IMG/VR virus record: IMGVR_UViG_3300028895_001083
Length of the DNA stretch: 16,938 nucleotides
Reading direction: 5' to 3' (one strand)
Source: a virus
Taxonomy: Duplodnaviria > Heunggongvirae > Uroviricota > Caudoviricetes
The notes beneath the pieces were generated by a model that was not told the DNA's origin, did no database searches, and was given only the letters and a program-made list of their open reading frames with translations. Both the position numbers and the translations under genes were made by a program. Position 1 is the stretch's first letter. The number at the start of each line of letters is the position of its first letter. Shown piece by piece: positions 699-2,936 of this stretch.

Positions 699-737
699 GC
701 CCCAATCTTATTGCTGTGAATAAAATTGGAGGCTCTC

Positions 738-1460
738 TTGCCCGGCACAGCACTCTACATCGGCGCCATCATGCGTGCCGCCGGTGACGCGTCCACTTAC
801 ATGGGCCCGGTCCGTGTGCCTCGATCGATGTCGAAGGCCACGACCATCAATGCCCATATTGCCGAAGTCAATCAGCAGCGCCAGAATGATGCGGCTGCAC
901 CGCCGCAGGCGTACGCTGATTCGACGTTGGCCGGGGATCGCCGATACGAGAACCGTATCCAGCGGCCCGGCCTGGCCATGCTTACCAGCGTGATCATCCT
1001 CGATCGCAACGGCAACCAAGTCTACGCACAGGAGACCACAGGTCCCCAACTGCGTGGCAAGGTTGCCGTCCCGCTGCTGAGCTACTTGAAGGAAGCATAC
1101 CCGCATCAGTTCTCCGACAATCTGCGATACAGCGACGGCACGCCCGACGCCGCGATTTTCGGATTCAACATCAAACAGGTGCTTCGGATCGCTGCATTCG
1201 AAGTACTGAAGCGGAATCAAAGCGAAGATACAAAGATCCAGGTACCGGTGCGCATGTGGCACAATCCGATCGGGTGTTACGACCCGTACGATGTGCTGTT
1301 GCCCTCGCCTGACCAAAAGGATCTGGATATTTTCTCCTTGATGCGTTACTTCGGCATTGCCGAGGCATCGCCCGAAGAGCTGGCCACGAGTGCGCTCCTC
1401 CAGGCCCAGGTGGCCCGGGAGCTCGTCTTGGCAGCTCAGCTATTGCCGTTGGGGTCTTGA
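738..1460 (+). CDS. Hypothetical protein, probable catalytically inactive DEDD/PolB-type 3'-5' exonuclease homologue (240 aa)
   Basis: GGAGG at 728-732 favours TTG 738 over TTG 726. Segments LYIGAIM, IFGFNIKQVL, CYDPYDVL, LDIFSLMRYFGI and SALLQAQVARELV follow the ExoI/II/III layout but lack the acidic residues. Family call is by eye. Confidence 0.55.
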   Translation: MPGTALYIGAIMRAAGDASTYMGPVRVPRSMSKATTINAHIAEVNQQRQNDAAAPPQAYADSTLAGDRRYENRIQRPGLAMLTSVIILDRNGNQVYAQETTGPQLRGKVAVPLLSYLKEAYPHQFSDNLRYSDGTPDAAIFGFNIKQVLRIAAFEVLKRNQSEDTKIQVPVRMWHNPIGCYDPYDVLLPSPDQKDLDIFSLMRYFGIAEASPEELATSALLQAQVARELVLAAQLLPLGS

Positions 1461-1484
1461 CACACTGGCCAACCCGGAGGCCGG

Positions 1485-1590
1485 GCGCTCGTCGCGTAGT
1501 GGTTACGTCAGCGGGCTCATAACCCGCATGGCCGCTGCTGAAGTTATCGGATCTTCCCCAGCGGTGGGGTTCGACTCCCTAACGAGTGCT
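1485..1590 (+). tRNA. Non-canonical tRNA(-like) gene, anticodon CAT (Met/fMet-type anticodon arm), with 37-nt variable region; CCA not encoded
   Basis: Acceptor GCGCTCGT 1485-1492 / ACGAGTGC 1582-1589. D arm GCGT-AGTGGTT-ACGT 1494-1508. Anticodon arm GCGGG-CTCATAA-CCCGC 1511-1527. T arm TGGGG-TTCGACT-CCCTA 1565-1581. Confidence 0.75.
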
Positions 1591-1631
1591 TTGGATCGAC
1601 GGAAGTTACAGTGTAGTCAAGCCCGGGGAAG

Positions 1632-1672
1632 GAGGGGCGGGTCGCGGTATCCCCACGCCGCGGCCCGCCCTC
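1632..1672 (+). other. GC-rich stem-loop between the tRNA and the next RBS (possible weak terminator or processing site)
   Basis: 1635-1647 pairs with 1658-1670 (13 bp, one G-U), 10-nt loop, extendable by 2 bp past a bulge. Followed only by GTGTTTAC, so the U-tract is weak. Confidence 0.5.
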
Positions 1673-1701
1673 GTGTTTACCACCACTACAGGAGAGACCC
1701 A

Positions 1702-2142
1702 ATGTCTCGCATCGAATTACATCACTCCGTGATGGACATCTTTCAAGCGCTCGGCGAGGGTAATCCCGGCGCGCTGCGCGTCTGTATGGAGCTGATGCAA
1801 CAGTCCGCCAACATTGACCCGGACAGCGCCCTGGGCGGTATGGGACCGTTGCTGTCGCTCGACACGCTCGAGATCTACGGCCCCCGCATTTGGATGCTGT
1901 ACAAGGACGTGTGCGGCGAGGATCTGACGCTGACAATAGCGTTGCTTCGTGGCCACCAGCTTGGTATGCTATCATCCGCAGAGTTGAACCACGCCATCGA
2001 CAACCGTGGCGACGGCATCGACCCCGCGACGGTACTCGCGCTGGTGCAAGAAGAGCTGCCGGCGTTCGCTACACAAGGAGCGAAAGATGACGAAGTGCAA
2101 GAATCACAAAAGGTACAAGGGGATACACCCCCCGCGGTGTAA
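1702..2142 (+). CDS. Conserved-looking phage hypothetical protein (146 aa)
   Basis: AGGAG at 1690-1694 before ATG 1702, internal to track ORF 1357-2142 whose N-terminal part runs through the tRNA. EGNPGA and LDTLEIYGPRIWMLYKDVC resemble a motif pair I recall from phage hypothetical proteins; function unknown. Confidence 0.8.
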   Translation: MSRIELHHSVMDIFQALGEGNPGALRVCMELMQQSANIDPDSALGGMGPLLSLDTLEIYGPRIWMLYKDVCGEDLTLTIALLRGHQLGMLSSAELNHAIDNRGDGIDPATVLALVQEELPAFATQGAKDDEVQESQKVQGDTPPAV

Positions 2143-2206
2143 CCGCGGAAAGCCTTGCGACGCTTGCAAGCAAAAGTACAAGGAGACTCATCGTGGACGT
2201 CTTTGA
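2087..2206 (+). CDS. 39-aa basic Cys/His mini-protein, putative zinc-binding
   Basis: AAGGAG at 2075-2080, ATG 2087. MTKCKNHKRYKGIHPPRCNRGKPCDACKQKYKETHRGRL (C-x2-H ... C-x2-C). Its stop overlaps the start region of the next gene. Confidence 0.6.
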   Translation: MTKCKNHKRYKGIHPPRCNRGKPCDACKQKYKETHRGRL

Positions 2207-2936
2207 ACCAGGCGAAGGATGGATGGAGAAGCGCGAGCGTCTGCCTGTTCCGAGCAGCGACGCGAAATTCGCACTGCATGAAATGGCAGACGACTGGCAT
2301 TTCTTCAACCACGGCGCACTGTTCGAATACACCACGATCGATACCGATCCCGTGGGTGACTGGTATGCCCAGCAAGAGCCGGGCACACGTGTCATCCGCA
2401 CACCGTTTAAGCGTCCAGTGATCGAGGGGCTTACGCGCCCCACGGCGCTGGGCGTTCCGTGGGGCCACGTCATCTGTGGCGTGCGCAACCACGATTGGGA
2501 GGATCTCTTTCCTTTCCTCGGCGGCGTTGTCGCCTTGGACTCCAAGGACAAGGACTACTTCCAGCTATTCAGCGGCGACATCGAAATCGTCGACCCAGGC
2601 GAGGCACAACGCCACAGCGTGTGGAGTCTCGACCTGCCGAAGATTACGGTCACTGTGTTCTGTGTCGATGGCATGAAGGACCGGTGGCAGGTGACGCCCA
2701 GTGTTGGTGGCATGCCGCCACGCTTCTATCGTGTCGACCCCCGCCAGGAGGTCATCGATATGGGGCAAGCGGTGCTGTCCGGCGACATGGAGCACCTCCA
2801 GTACAAGGACAATCCGGCGTTCAAACCGCTGCAGGATAAGTTCAAATCCATAGTTACACCCGGAGAAGCGAGCAATGAAGCTCTACATCGAGCTGCCCAG
2901 CAAAATCGAGGGAAACTGGACCTTGGTGGACGGTGA
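2193..2936 (+). CDS. Hypothetical protein (247 aa)
   Basis: GTG start with AAGGAG at 2180-2185; globular-looking composition; no family recognised. Confidence 0.8.
   Translation: MDVFEPGEGWMEKRERLPVPSSDAKFALHEMADDWHFFNHGALFEYTTIDTDPVGDWYAQQEPGTRVIRTPFKRPVIEGLTRPTALGVPWGHVICGVRNHDWEDLFPFLGGVVALDSKDKDYFQLFSGDIEIVDPGEAQRHSVWSLDLPKITVTVFCVDGMKDRWQVTPSVGGMPPRFYRVDPRQEVIDMGQAVLSGDMEHLQYKDNPAFKPLQDKFKSIVTPGEASNEALHRAAQQNRGKLDLGGR

Follow-up and report, generated by a model that had tools for sequence, protein, structure and literature searches.

A tRNA-like gene with an initiator-type anticodon arm, an 8+5 acceptor/T helix and an optional variable hairpin in a group of large uncultured phages

The window, by which we mean the whole 16,938-nt stretch of phage DNA analysed here (IMG/VR record IMGVR_UViG_3300028895_001083, from hypersaline sediment), carries at 1485-1590 on the plus strand a 106-nt element whose cloverleaf was confirmed base for base by direct reading of the window. 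The parts of this element and the features around it are as follows.

726-1460, plus strand: upstream gene, 244 aa, a conserved partner in the slot, with homologues 5' of the element in relatives
1467-1482, plus strand: leader hairpin GGCC-AACCCGGA-GGCC, followed by G1483-G1484 and then by the acceptor stem
1485-1492, plus strand: 5' strand of the acceptor stem, 8 nt, paired with 1582-1589 by direct reading and in the fold
1494-1508, plus strand: compact D arm with a stem of 4-5 bp and GG in the loop
1511-1527, plus strand: anticodon arm GCGGG/CTCATAA/CCCGC, with stem 1511-1515/1523-1527, loop 1516-1522 and CAT at 1518-1520
1528-1564, plus strand: variable region, 37 nt, with outer stem 1532-1537/1559-1564 and inner stem 1540-1543/1553-1556
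1565-1581, plus strand: T arm TGGGG/TTCGACT/CCCTA, with stem 1565-1569/1577-1581, directly abutting the acceptor stem
1582-1589, plus strand: 3' strand of the acceptor stem, followed by T1590, the unpaired 3' base at position 73
1630-1674, plus strand: terminator-like GC-rich hairpin with a long perfect stem, about 40 nt 3' of the element
1702-2142, plus strand: gene for 146 aa, an insertion 3' of the element and 5' of the conserved downstream gene, outside the conserved module
2193-2936, plus strand: downstream gene, 247 aa, a conserved partner in the slot, with homologues 3' of the element in relatives

The eight acceptor pairs are, in order, G-C, C-G, G.T, C-G, T-A, C-G, G-C and T-A, and the five pairs of the T stem (T-A, G.T, G-C, G-C, G-C) enclose the loop TTCGACT. 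C1493 alone links the acceptor stem to the D arm, C1509 and A1510 link the D arm to the anticodon arm, and the variable region pairs CCGCTG with CAGCGG in its outer stem and GAAG with CTTC in its inner stem. The 8-bp acceptor on a 5-bp T stem, the linkers, the anticodon arm and the 37-nt variable fold all read as a first-pass annotation of this DNA had claimed. Its choice of the plus strand from the G-U pairs also holds, since three G.T pairs would become C.A on the minus strand, and the 1:72 mismatch is absent as it had said, G1485 being paired with C1589 and position 73 being T1590. Three G-C pairs (1513-1515/1523-1525) adjoin the CAT loop, and three consecutive G-C pairs beside a CAU loop are the signature by which the P site and the initiation factors select initiator tRNA. 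The T loop fits TTCRANN, the D loop has GG, and the 7-nt anticodon loop has U33 and a purine at 37, all as in a tRNA cloverleaf; the layout departs from that of a standard tRNA, with 8+5 bp (norm 7+5), a single linker base (norm U8+N9) and a 37-nt variable region (norm 4-5 nt, or class II). The 3' CCA is not encoded, TTTGG coming after T1590. G1484 is able to pair with T1590, and an equivalent G stands before the stem in most relatives. The cloverleaf is the minimum-free-energy fold of the 106 nt (-45.8 kcal/mol, z -2.6), and 3 of 200 shuffles fold as well.

The element holds a fixed position in a replication/recombination operon, 63 kb from the tRNA cluster, and always lies between two co-oriented genes; upstream, the operon runs from a RuvC-like gene through a gene with a DEDD fold to the element. 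The second of these assignments comes from the AlphaFold model of the 244-aa protein, which resembles DEDD 3'-5' exonucleases weakly but in a consistent way (ISG20 first, with E 2.6e-3, followed by Pol III epsilon and RNase T), the protein itself having no Pfam or PHROGs match. The 146-aa gene is missing from the slot in every relative and belongs to a family widespread in phages in other contexts; it is a lineage-specific insertion, and the true syntenic partner on the 3' side is the 247-aa gene. The 146-aa protein has no match in Pfam or PHROGs and an atlas look-up gave only leads below 0.85; the 247-aa protein has no match in Pfam or PHROGs, none from Foldseek at E<=1e-3 and none from VIA-align with Z over 4.1. 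In relatives with a short form of the element (see below), the ribosome-binding site of the 247-aa homologue abuts its 3' end, within 3 nt.

A hairpin of the form GGCN-AACCCGG-N'GCC stands one G 5' of the element in L072, L067, L084, L080, L081, L083, L094, L096 and L050, the leader hairpin being conserved in about half of the members, and its loop-adjoining pair covaries (C-G, A-T, G-C, T-A). Analogous leader hairpins occur in L078, L070 and L088. A role as a general promoter was ruled out because the motif has a single occurrence in the 133.6-kb genome. Pairing of the leader loop with the T arm was likewise dropped, as relatives with a changed loop show no compensating change, and an alternative acceptor strand drawn from the leader hairpin (by ARAGORN, for L080, L083 and L094) is confined to that subclade and has no family-wide covariation behind it. 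On the 3' side, a terminator-like hairpin is found at the equivalent place in L058, L059 and L075, followed in L075 by a T run; a simple terminator scan did not call the hairpin of the window, whose T tract is weak. The leader and terminator-like hairpins and the operon position had escaped the first-pass annotation, as had an ordinary initiator-type tRNA elsewhere in the genome.

Standard detectors miss the element as it stands, neither ARAGORN at default settings nor Rfam at gathering thresholds making a call on it in the window. Its best Rfam match is tRNA-Sec (RF01852), with 30.8 bits where the gathering threshold is 47 bits (E 2e-4 on the local stretch), and RF00005 (tRNA) reaches 25.1 bits (E 3.5e-4 per genome) against a threshold of 29 bits. 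ARAGORN in intron mode or at lowered thresholds returns only spurious Ala and Sec alternatives on the native sequence. Once the variable loop is shortened in silico, or 1533-1564 removed, ARAGORN calls tRNA-Met(CAT), from which we conclude that the length of the variable arm blocks detection.

Homologues of the element occupy the same slot in related large uncultured phages, flanked by homologues of the 244-aa gene (726-1460) and the 247-aa gene (2193-2936), and persist where the neighbouring protein is only 36-64% identical. We curated 17 distinct homologues, which with the window's own copy make the 18 members of the family counts below. Four near-identical contigs (L046-L049), in which the element is invariant, are uninformative, and L050 ends 41 nt past the upstream gene, where the element starts. 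Within this family ARAGORN at default settings calls tRNA-Met(CAT) in 5 of the 18 members and Rfam makes a call in none, all members falling under its tRNA and tRNA-Sec thresholds: the relatives have no match to RF00005 at E<=10, score 24-30 bits on RF01852 and, in their short forms, find their best Rfam match in RF01684 (mascRNA-menRNA; 22-29 bits, threshold 42.5). A covariance model built from six relatives with the window excluded finds 1484-1591 at 33.3 bits (E 3.6e-6 in 326 kb), and in the phage's own genome the same model recovers the element at E 1.5e-6. Further afield, blastn found no match among INPHARED phages, and nhmmer with the element found none in relatives reached via the 146-aa gene. 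In cellular genomes the leader-plus-T-loop pattern gave at least 120 matches; among the matches listed none has an initiator-type anticodon arm, and we regard them as noise.

Covariation is present in all four stems. Scored over 23 pairs in 16 sequences, the paired fraction is 90.5% of cells, where shuffles give 72.1 +/- 1.6; both sides have changed at 17 of the 23 pairs against 9.8 in shuffles, and neither value is reached in any of 500 shuffles; a slid-partner control leaves 42-50% paired. The curated count of 18 sequences gives 89.8% paired against 68.7%, and RNAalifold, run on a plain, unfitted MAFFT alignment, predicts five helices in which both partners have changed at 19 of 25 pairs. 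Acceptor pairs 1-7 are standard in 16-18 members, with changes on both sides at six of the seven and at the eighth, which is itself standard in only 11/18. All four D-stem pairs of the family alignment have changed on both sides, and the D-loop motif GTGG/GGTGG is common to the family. The inner three pairs of the T stem are G-C in 16-18 members and the outer two standard in 11; as an architecture the Sec-like 8/5 description is right, with the qualification that 7/18, some 40% of relatives, have non-standard pairs at the eighth acceptor position and at both outer T positions. The family also retains the GG of the D loop and a canonical T loop.

Conservation is strongest in the anticodon arm. 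CAT is found in every member (18/18), and the initiator hallmark recognised in the first reading is a family trait, the three pairs adjoining the loop being G-C in 18, 18 and 16 of the 18. A 7-nt loop with T33-CAT-purine37 occurs in 13/18; the loop has 8-9 nt, or is without U33, in the other 5. The acceptor end is more variable: position 73 is T in 13, C in 3, A in 1 and G in 1 of the curated members, and the 1:72 pair is G-C in 11/18 and G.T in 5/18. On this comparative sequence evidence, 1485-1590 is a genuine RNA gene that selection maintains in a group of large uncultured phages.

A hairpin of 5-9 bp stands at the variable region in ten members, which fall into ten lineages scattered across the neighbouring protein's tree; their hairpin sequences cannot be aligned and yet always pair, and the plain MAFFT alignment is enough for RNAalifold to predict the variable helix with changes on both sides. 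Conservation does not extend to the inner GAAG/CTTC stem, in place of which relatives have U/G-rich loops. Half of the family is without the long arm and keeps the same anticodon arm; these short forms make up one derived subclade, which is a loss from the genome and not the work of splicing. Homologues with and without the hairpin, for which the first-pass annotation had advised a search, are both found in related phages. Since the hairpin pairs in all ten lineages and was lost in one subclade, we take it to be an old, optional appendage and not an intron.

The removable insertion of roughly 32 nt proposed in the first-pass annotation is not supported. On such a reading the element is a tRNA-Met gene with an intron or mobile hairpin of about 32 nt in its variable loop and an ordinary spliced product, and it draws on the 5-nt variable loop and the ARAGORN tRNA-Met call obtained when 1533-1564 is removed in silico, as well as on a distant relative whose tRNA-Thr has a 72-nt insert in its anticodon loop. 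The hairpin is maintained by compensatory change, however; its sequence has no repeat elsewhere in the phage genome, and intron families have no match at E<=10 in 1400-1700. At 32 nt it lies far under the size of a group I intron, and bacteria and phages are not known to have a splicing endonuclease for a variable loop. The body without the insert would moreover still have its 8+5 helix and odd linkers, and we consider the reading scarcely credible. The same can be said of a decaying tRNA pseudogene, or a chance tRNA-like fold, which the sub-threshold scores in all standard detectors might suggest: the first-pass annotation had listed decay among its options, and this is refuted by same-slot homologues beside such diverged flanking proteins and by the compensatory changes in the stems. 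A fixed position, covariation in every helix across 18 diverged members and detection by a model made from relatives alone speak equally against chance.

The ordinary initiator-type tRNA of the window's phage lies at G000:50679-50753 and has U1xU72, A73 and GGG/CCC; the phage also has a second CAT tRNA, its ordinary tRNAs are likewise without an encoded CCA, and a second tRNA-like element, lacking an anticodon loop, lies at G000:51021-51086. One relative has 38 tRNAs, including two or more with CAT, and its copy of the element still stands far from the tRNA cluster. In a complete relative of 226 kb, a cluster tRNA-Cys has the same compact D arm and a 6-bp anticodon stem, and this tRNA-Cys and a cluster tRNA-Trp score 36 and 42 bits on the family model, which indicates that tRNAs close to the element's build sit in the clusters of these phages. 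The window's genome encodes no MetRS, formyltransferase or CCA-adding enzyme, and three relatives, two of them complete genomes, encode no MetRS or CCA-adding enzyme.

What the evidence allows is the remaining proposal of the first-pass annotation, a novel tRNA class or a decoy. Our preference, held tentatively and short of an even chance, is for a functional non-canonical initiator-type tRNA that is specific to one lineage of large phages and would probably be charged by MetRS as an extra initiator. Such a tRNA would be co-transcribed with the upstream operon (the RuvC-like and DEDD-fold genes) ahead of the terminator-like hairpin and excised by host tRNA-processing enzymes; CCA would then have to be added, because none is encoded. 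It would fold into an L shape carrying the long variable hairpin, with an acceptor/T helix of 13 layers, one above normal, as in tRNA-Sec, and its business end would be the anticodon arm, in which three G-C pairs close the CUCAUAA loop. We infer that host MetRS might charge it through CAU, giving an extra initiator-type tRNA, and that its altered body may shield it from EF-Tu, as well as from any host enzyme by which the normal initiator tRNA is attacked or depleted. Phage tRNAs have been proposed as replacements for host tRNAs lost to anticodon nucleases (PMC10264068), and the tRNA-Tyr of phage SP15, which Retron-Eco7 does not cleave, needs its longer variable loop to suppress that defence (PMC12673091). 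A bolder form of the proposal, in which a private, body-altered initiator tRNA initiates outside the host's formylation and EF-Tu discrimination rules or neutralises a defence that attacks tRNA-fMet, is conceivable but doubtful. With G-C at 1:72 and U at position 73, the element does not obey the E. coli formylation rules. Several observations count against an initiator in general: the variation at position 73, which would be unusual for a single amino-acid identity; retention of the element in a phage already equipped with two other CAT tRNAs, one of them a normal initiator type; the non-standard loops (5/18) and acceptor/T junction pairs (7/18); and the scores below Rfam thresholds together with the lack of MetRS, formyltransferase and CCA-adding genes in the window's genome.

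Some of these observations would suit an uncharged mimic of initiator tRNA, processed but non-decoding, whose anticodon arm binds and blocks a host protein that recognises tRNA-fMet; candidate targets are a VapC-type anticodon nuclease, another tRNA-directed defence, MetRS, formyltransferase or an initiation factor during takeover. By far the strongest conservation is in the anticodon arm, while features for charging and decoding drift (position 73, the loops, the junction), the element is kept in phages with a full tRNA set and alongside a normal initiator-type tRNA, and its fixed place is in the replication/recombination operon, away from the tRNA cluster. VapC toxins are known to target initiator tRNA (PMC10264068 and the work cited there; see also PMC4105405). 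A decoy would, however, face competition from an abundant cellular tRNA unless its binding were much tighter, and U33 with purine 37 in 13/18, together with the retained tertiary bases of the D and T loops, fits a working tRNA equally well; we hold this explanation to be unlikely, if a serious contender. Less probable again is a role in cis, as an element for processing or stability: a tRNA-like punctuation mark comparable to mascRNA at the 3' end of MALAT1, which RNase P and a 3' endonuclease would cut so as to separate messages and define their ends, the released RNA having no role of its own. The constant place between two co-oriented genes, the ribosome-binding site within 3 nt in short-form relatives, the mascRNA-menRNA scores of the short forms (below threshold), the conserved leader hairpin and the second tRNA-like element without an anticodon loop are all consistent with it, but an acceptor/T domain would suffice for that purpose, and the near-invariant GGG/CCC and CAU, the covarying D arm and the variable hairpin would be left unexplained. 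A recoding tRNA resembling the Ser-accepting allo-tRNAs, in which the long arm and U73 make a SerRS substrate and AUG is read as Ser or initiates with Ser, seems very improbable. In the allo-tRNA work of Mukai et al., Ser identity was assigned from G73 or U73 combined with a long variable arm (PMC5389517), the window and L058 combine U73 with a long arm, and tRNA-Sec is the best Rfam match. Identity cannot rest on the arm, though, because the half of the family without it keeps the same anticodon arm, and proteome-wide misreading of AUG as Ser would harm the phage as well. A 37-nt arm is also well beyond the natural variable arms of Ser, Leu and Tyr tRNAs.

Initiator tRNA is the one tRNA on which all proteins depend, and here a conserved phage-borne family keeps its anticodon arm with the rest of the molecule rebuilt. 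If the element is charged and used, initiation can be carried out by a tRNA of 13 layers with an extra arm of 37 nt, which would also provide a natural scaffold for an orthogonal initiator; were the element a decoy, it would represent a new kind of RNA counter-defence. Should it prove to be a private initiator or to neutralise a defence, it would be a dedicated device aimed at translation initiation during infection. In practical terms, inventories of phage tRNAs miss such genes and so under-count them, given ARAGORN calls in 5/18 members, Rfam calls in 0/18 and a window copy missed by both.

Set against known systems, the element shares with bacterial initiator tRNA-fMet (E. coli metY/metZWV) the CAU in a CUCAUAA loop, the three G-C pairs, the canonical T loop and the D-loop GG. 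It differs in having G1-C72 in place of the 1x72 mismatch, U73 in place of A73 and C11-G24 in place of A11-U24, in its 8+5 instead of 7+5 layers, one linker base instead of U8+N9 and small D loop, and in a variable hairpin of 37 nt where tRNA-fMet has 4-5 nt. With bacterial tRNA-Sec (RF01852) it has in common the 13-layer 8/5 acceptor/T helix, the long variable arm and the compact small-loop D arm, and with tRNA-Sec and the allo-tRNAs a tendency to a 6-bp anticodon stem, U73 also being found in some allo-tRNAs. The anticodon, however, is CAU and not UCA, the D stem has 4-5 bp and not 6, the score is 30.8 bits against the 47 of the threshold, and the variable arm, which is optional within the family, has about double the usual length; allo-tRNAs, unlike the 13-layer 8/5 element, have 12 layers (8/4 or 9/3) (PMC5389517). 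The mascRNA/MEN-beta RNAs (RF01684) are similarly tRNA-shaped elements in a longer transcript at a gene boundary, but they are eukaryotic and have no conserved anticodon loop, whereas the anticodon arm is the most conserved part here. The SP15 tRNA-Tyr (PMC12673091) is likewise a phage tRNA with a variable region enlarged relative to that of the host, although it is a normal class II tRNA with a loop just a few nt longer, and the counter-defence role has been demonstrated by experiment for the SP15 loop. Also comparable are the phage initiator-type tRNAs of IMG/VR loci L027-L045, which are phage-borne, with CAU, a GGG/CCC stem and a variable-region hairpin. Those are mostly cloverleaves called by ARAGORN with a 7-bp acceptor (L040 is drawn with 8 pairs) and mostly with a 1x72 mismatch; their variable regions span about 15-50 nt, and some encode CCA. 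The family described here is set apart from them by its 8+5 body, paired 1:72, lack of an encoded CCA, leader hairpin, fixed operon position and failure with the detectors, and this 13-bp, operon-embedded family is a distinct variant among phage initiator-type tRNAs with an extra arm.

The first-pass annotation had described positions 1485-1590 (+) as a tRNA with a CAT anticodon, an 8+5 acceptor/T build and a long, structured variable region, and direct reading of the sequence bears out all of its structural claims about this element.

Parts of the element and its flanking hairpins (window coordinates)
1467-1482, +: leader hairpin GGCN-AACCCGG-N'GCC, then one or two G, directly 5' of the element
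1485-1492 with 1582-1589, +: acceptor stem, 8 bp
C1493, +: single-base linker before the D arm
1494-1508, +: small D arm
between the D arm and the anticodon arm, +: two-base linker
1511-1527, +: anticodon arm GCGGG/CTCATAA/CCCGC
1528-1564, +: variable region, 37 nt, stems CCGCTG/CAGCGG and GAAG/CTTC
1565-1569 with 1577-1581, +: T stem, 5 bp, stacked on the acceptor stem, loop TTCGACT
T1590, +: position 73
1630-1674, +: long GC-rich terminator-like hairpin, about 40 nt 3' of the element

The cloverleaf is the minimum-free-energy fold of the element (-45.8 kcal/mol, z -2.6), which is called neither by default ARAGORN nor by Rfam at gathering thresholds. At permissive thresholds its top Rfam family is tRNA-Sec (30.8 bits, E 2e-4; threshold 47), and RF00005 gives 25.1 bits against a threshold of 29. 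When the variable loop is shortened in silico or 1533-1564 is deleted, ARAGORN returns tRNA-Met(CAT), so the oversized arm is what hides the gene.

Upstream of the element lies a gene of 244 aa (726-1460, +), and a gene of 146 aa (1702-2142, +) follows it. The 146-aa family is common in phages, where its contexts are unrelated, and an nhmmer search next to its members returned no copy of the element; it comprises over 400 protein clusters across phage and metagenomic data, again in varying contexts, with some copies adjoining tRNA genes (L011, L021). True synteny was revealed by the 244-aa gene together with a conserved 247-aa gene (2193-2936, +). In relatives, homologues of these two border a short gap from which the 146-aa gene, a lineage-specific insertion into a conserved slot, is missing, and which contains a homologue of the element (e.g. 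loci L058, L059, L075, L067, L077, L084, L092, L095 and L096). The neighbour protein in L058 is 62% identical to the window's, and L059 is the same contig as L029, which had come up earlier in an independent pattern search of DNA. L080, L081, L083, L094, L072 and L078 have a compact version lacking the long variable arm, L070, L088 and L087 have forms that deviate further, and the element is missing in L062-L065, L097, L074 (= L089), L085, L091, L093 and L098.

The 244-aa protein has no Pfam or PHROGs match. The only structures resembling its AlphaFold model (pLDDT 82) are DEDD 3'-5' exonucleases (ISG20, Pol III epsilon, RNase T), and those matches are weak (E 2.6e-3 and above). The 247-aa protein carries an invariant HFFNHG motif, and its confident model (pLDDT 79) matches no PDB fold. 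A tRNA-like element without a normal anticodon loop (L017:2788-2904) lies directly upstream of one homologue of the 146-aa gene; it consists of an outer stem of 11 bp, a D-like stem of 5 bp, a small variable hairpin and a T arm.

A covariance model (A2, R1) made from six compact relatives only finds the window element with 33.3 bits, at E 3.6e-6 when 326 kb are searched and E 1.5e-6 when the genome of the phage itself is. In a covariation test on a model-fitted alignment of 16 distinct sequences with 23 pairs and 500 shuffles, standard pairs fill 90.5% of cells (72.1 +/- 1.6 shuffled), both-side changes occur in 17 of the 23 pairs (9.8 shuffled) and the covariation score is 0.517 (0.207 shuffled). 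No shuffle (0/500) reaches the observed pairing, double-change or covariation-score values, the signal comes from all four helices, and slid partners, as a control on the same alignment, pair in only 42-50%. The curated register, which was picked partly by pairing and is therefore somewhat biased, and which is uncertain for some distant members, gives 89.8% against 68.7% for 19 pairs in 18 sequences and shows double changes at 15 positions. RNAalifold, given a plain MAFFT alignment of seven long-arm members fitted to nothing, recovers five helices including the variable hairpin, with 19 of 25 pairs kept through both-side changes; between the window and L058 alone, double changes fall at acceptor pairs 4 and 5, T pair 1 and three of the six variable-stem pairs. 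Covariation across the helices and the match to the relatives-only model exclude a chance fold, and likewise the decaying tRNA that the first-pass annotation had entertained.

The element is firmly established as a conserved, structured, tRNA-derived RNA gene, and as firmly, its most constrained part is the initiator-type anticodon arm. The three loop-proximal anticodon-stem pairs are G-C in 18, 18 and 16 of the 18 family members, all 18 have CAT, and 13 keep a 7-nt loop with T33, CAT and purine 37, loops of 8-9 nt or without T33 being found in more distant members. Also preserved are the inner T stem, the T loop and the D-loop GG. Position 73 varies (T in 13, C in 3, A in 1, G in 1), and just 11/18 members have standard pairs at the eighth acceptor position and the two outer T positions, where G.A and T.T recur; the stacked acceptor/T layers stay at 13 in total.

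The long variable hairpin occurs in ten lineages with a stem of 5-9 bp, its sequences being unalignable between lineages and its loops mostly U/G-rich; the window's version occurs once in the phage genome. In the neighbour-protein tree, long-arm forms lie on both sides of the midpoint, and five compact forms make up one well-supported clade nested beside long-arm forms, a pattern which indicates that the arm is ancient and was lost once in the compact clade.

About half of the family shares the leader hairpin, whose loop-adjacent pair takes four different standard forms and whose motif occurs once in the window phage genome. The 3' hairpin is conserved in position in the window's nearest relatives, with a T tract that is weak in the window and a T run following in L075; in the compact clade the ribosome-binding site of the next gene comes at most 3 nt after the element. 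Judged from this arrangement, the element would be part of a polycistronic transcript and would require cutting out.

The window covers bases 114940-131877 of a 133.6-kb record, whose completeness CheckV puts at 62%; identical proteins occur on contigs up to 220 kb, so the source is a large phage. The ordinary tRNA genes of this genome, four in all (two CAT, one Glu-TTC, one Gln-TTG), lie at 50.6-53.9 kb, 63 kb from the element; one CAT tRNA is of the classical bacterial initiator type (U1xU72, A73, GGG/CCC), and none of the four encodes CCA. Between the two CAT genes, outside the window (G000:51021-51086 = L003:1843-1908), stands a second non-canonical tRNA-like element with a 7-bp acceptor stem, a GCCC-GAAA-GGGC hairpin in place of the anticodon arm and a T arm GGGG/TTCGATT/CCCC, scoring 28.2 bits on the family model and called by neither ARAGORN nor RF00005. 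Searches for MetRS, formyltransferase and CCA-adding enzyme in the window's genome came up empty, as did those for MetRS and CCA-adding enzyme in three relatives (two of them complete genomes), so any processing and charging would rest on the host.

Ordinary tRNAs number 38 in a complete 226-kb relative (G001), two or more being CAT, and the element is still present there, about 140 kb from the tRNA cluster. Two cluster genes of G001, tRNA-Trp(CCA) (G001:30045-30115) and tRNA-Cys(GCA) (G001:12660-12729), fail the RF00005 threshold or come close to failing it; against the family model they score 42 and 36 bits, respectively, and the tRNA-Cys has the compact D arm and the anticodon stem of 6 bp seen in the element family. 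Some tRNAs of these phages that look ordinary thus use a build close to the element's. A complete 195-kb relative (G002) and a 153-kb relative have one or two tRNAs each, no CAT among them, plus the element. One of only two ARAGORN tRNA matches in G002 has a four-base anticodon (ttca; L229:1500-1573).

Unlike its conserved structure, the role of the element is something we infer. Our leading but tentative proposal is a charged, non-canonical initiator-type tRNA. It fits the decoding-type loop and the bases for tertiary interaction, both retained, as well as one cluster tRNA whose body is similar. The 13-layer helix and extra arm would plausibly keep it off EF-Tu and off host factors aimed at normal tRNA-fMet. 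Phage tRNAs have been proposed as nuclease-resistant replacements (PMC10264068), and one such tRNA needs its longer variable loop to suppress a defence (PMC12673091). That the acceptor end drifts across the family, and that phages already equipped with full tRNA sets keep the element, would fit an uncharged decoy, which we consider somewhat less likely. A pure processing element would leave the conserved anticodon arm unexplained and is improbable, while a Ser-accepting recoder, an intron-bearing tRNA and a pseudogene are each highly improbable.

An incomplete literature search found no publication describing the element family. In a distant phage, a tRNA-Thr(TGT) at L021:6095-6238 has a 72-nt insert in its anticodon loop, below group I intron size, and scores 43.4 bits on RF00005 across the insert. 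Ordinary tRNA-Met genes at L035:890-961, L039:737-800 and L042:5676-5747 are followed at once by an orphan T-arm-like hairpin (GGTTCGANTCC in the stem). The element resembles tRNA-Sec in architecture but is not a member, having the wrong anticodon and a score below threshold; it shares the architecture of allo-tRNAs but is not one of them, having 13 layers rather than their 12; and it shares the anticodon arm of classical initiator tRNA but falls outside that class by its paired 1:72 and U73. IMG/VR contains many initiator-type phage tRNAs that carry an additional hairpin; ARAGORN mostly calls these as ordinary cloverleaves with a 7-bp acceptor, usually with a 1x72 mismatch, and compared with them the element family is a more deviant, operon-embedded variant.
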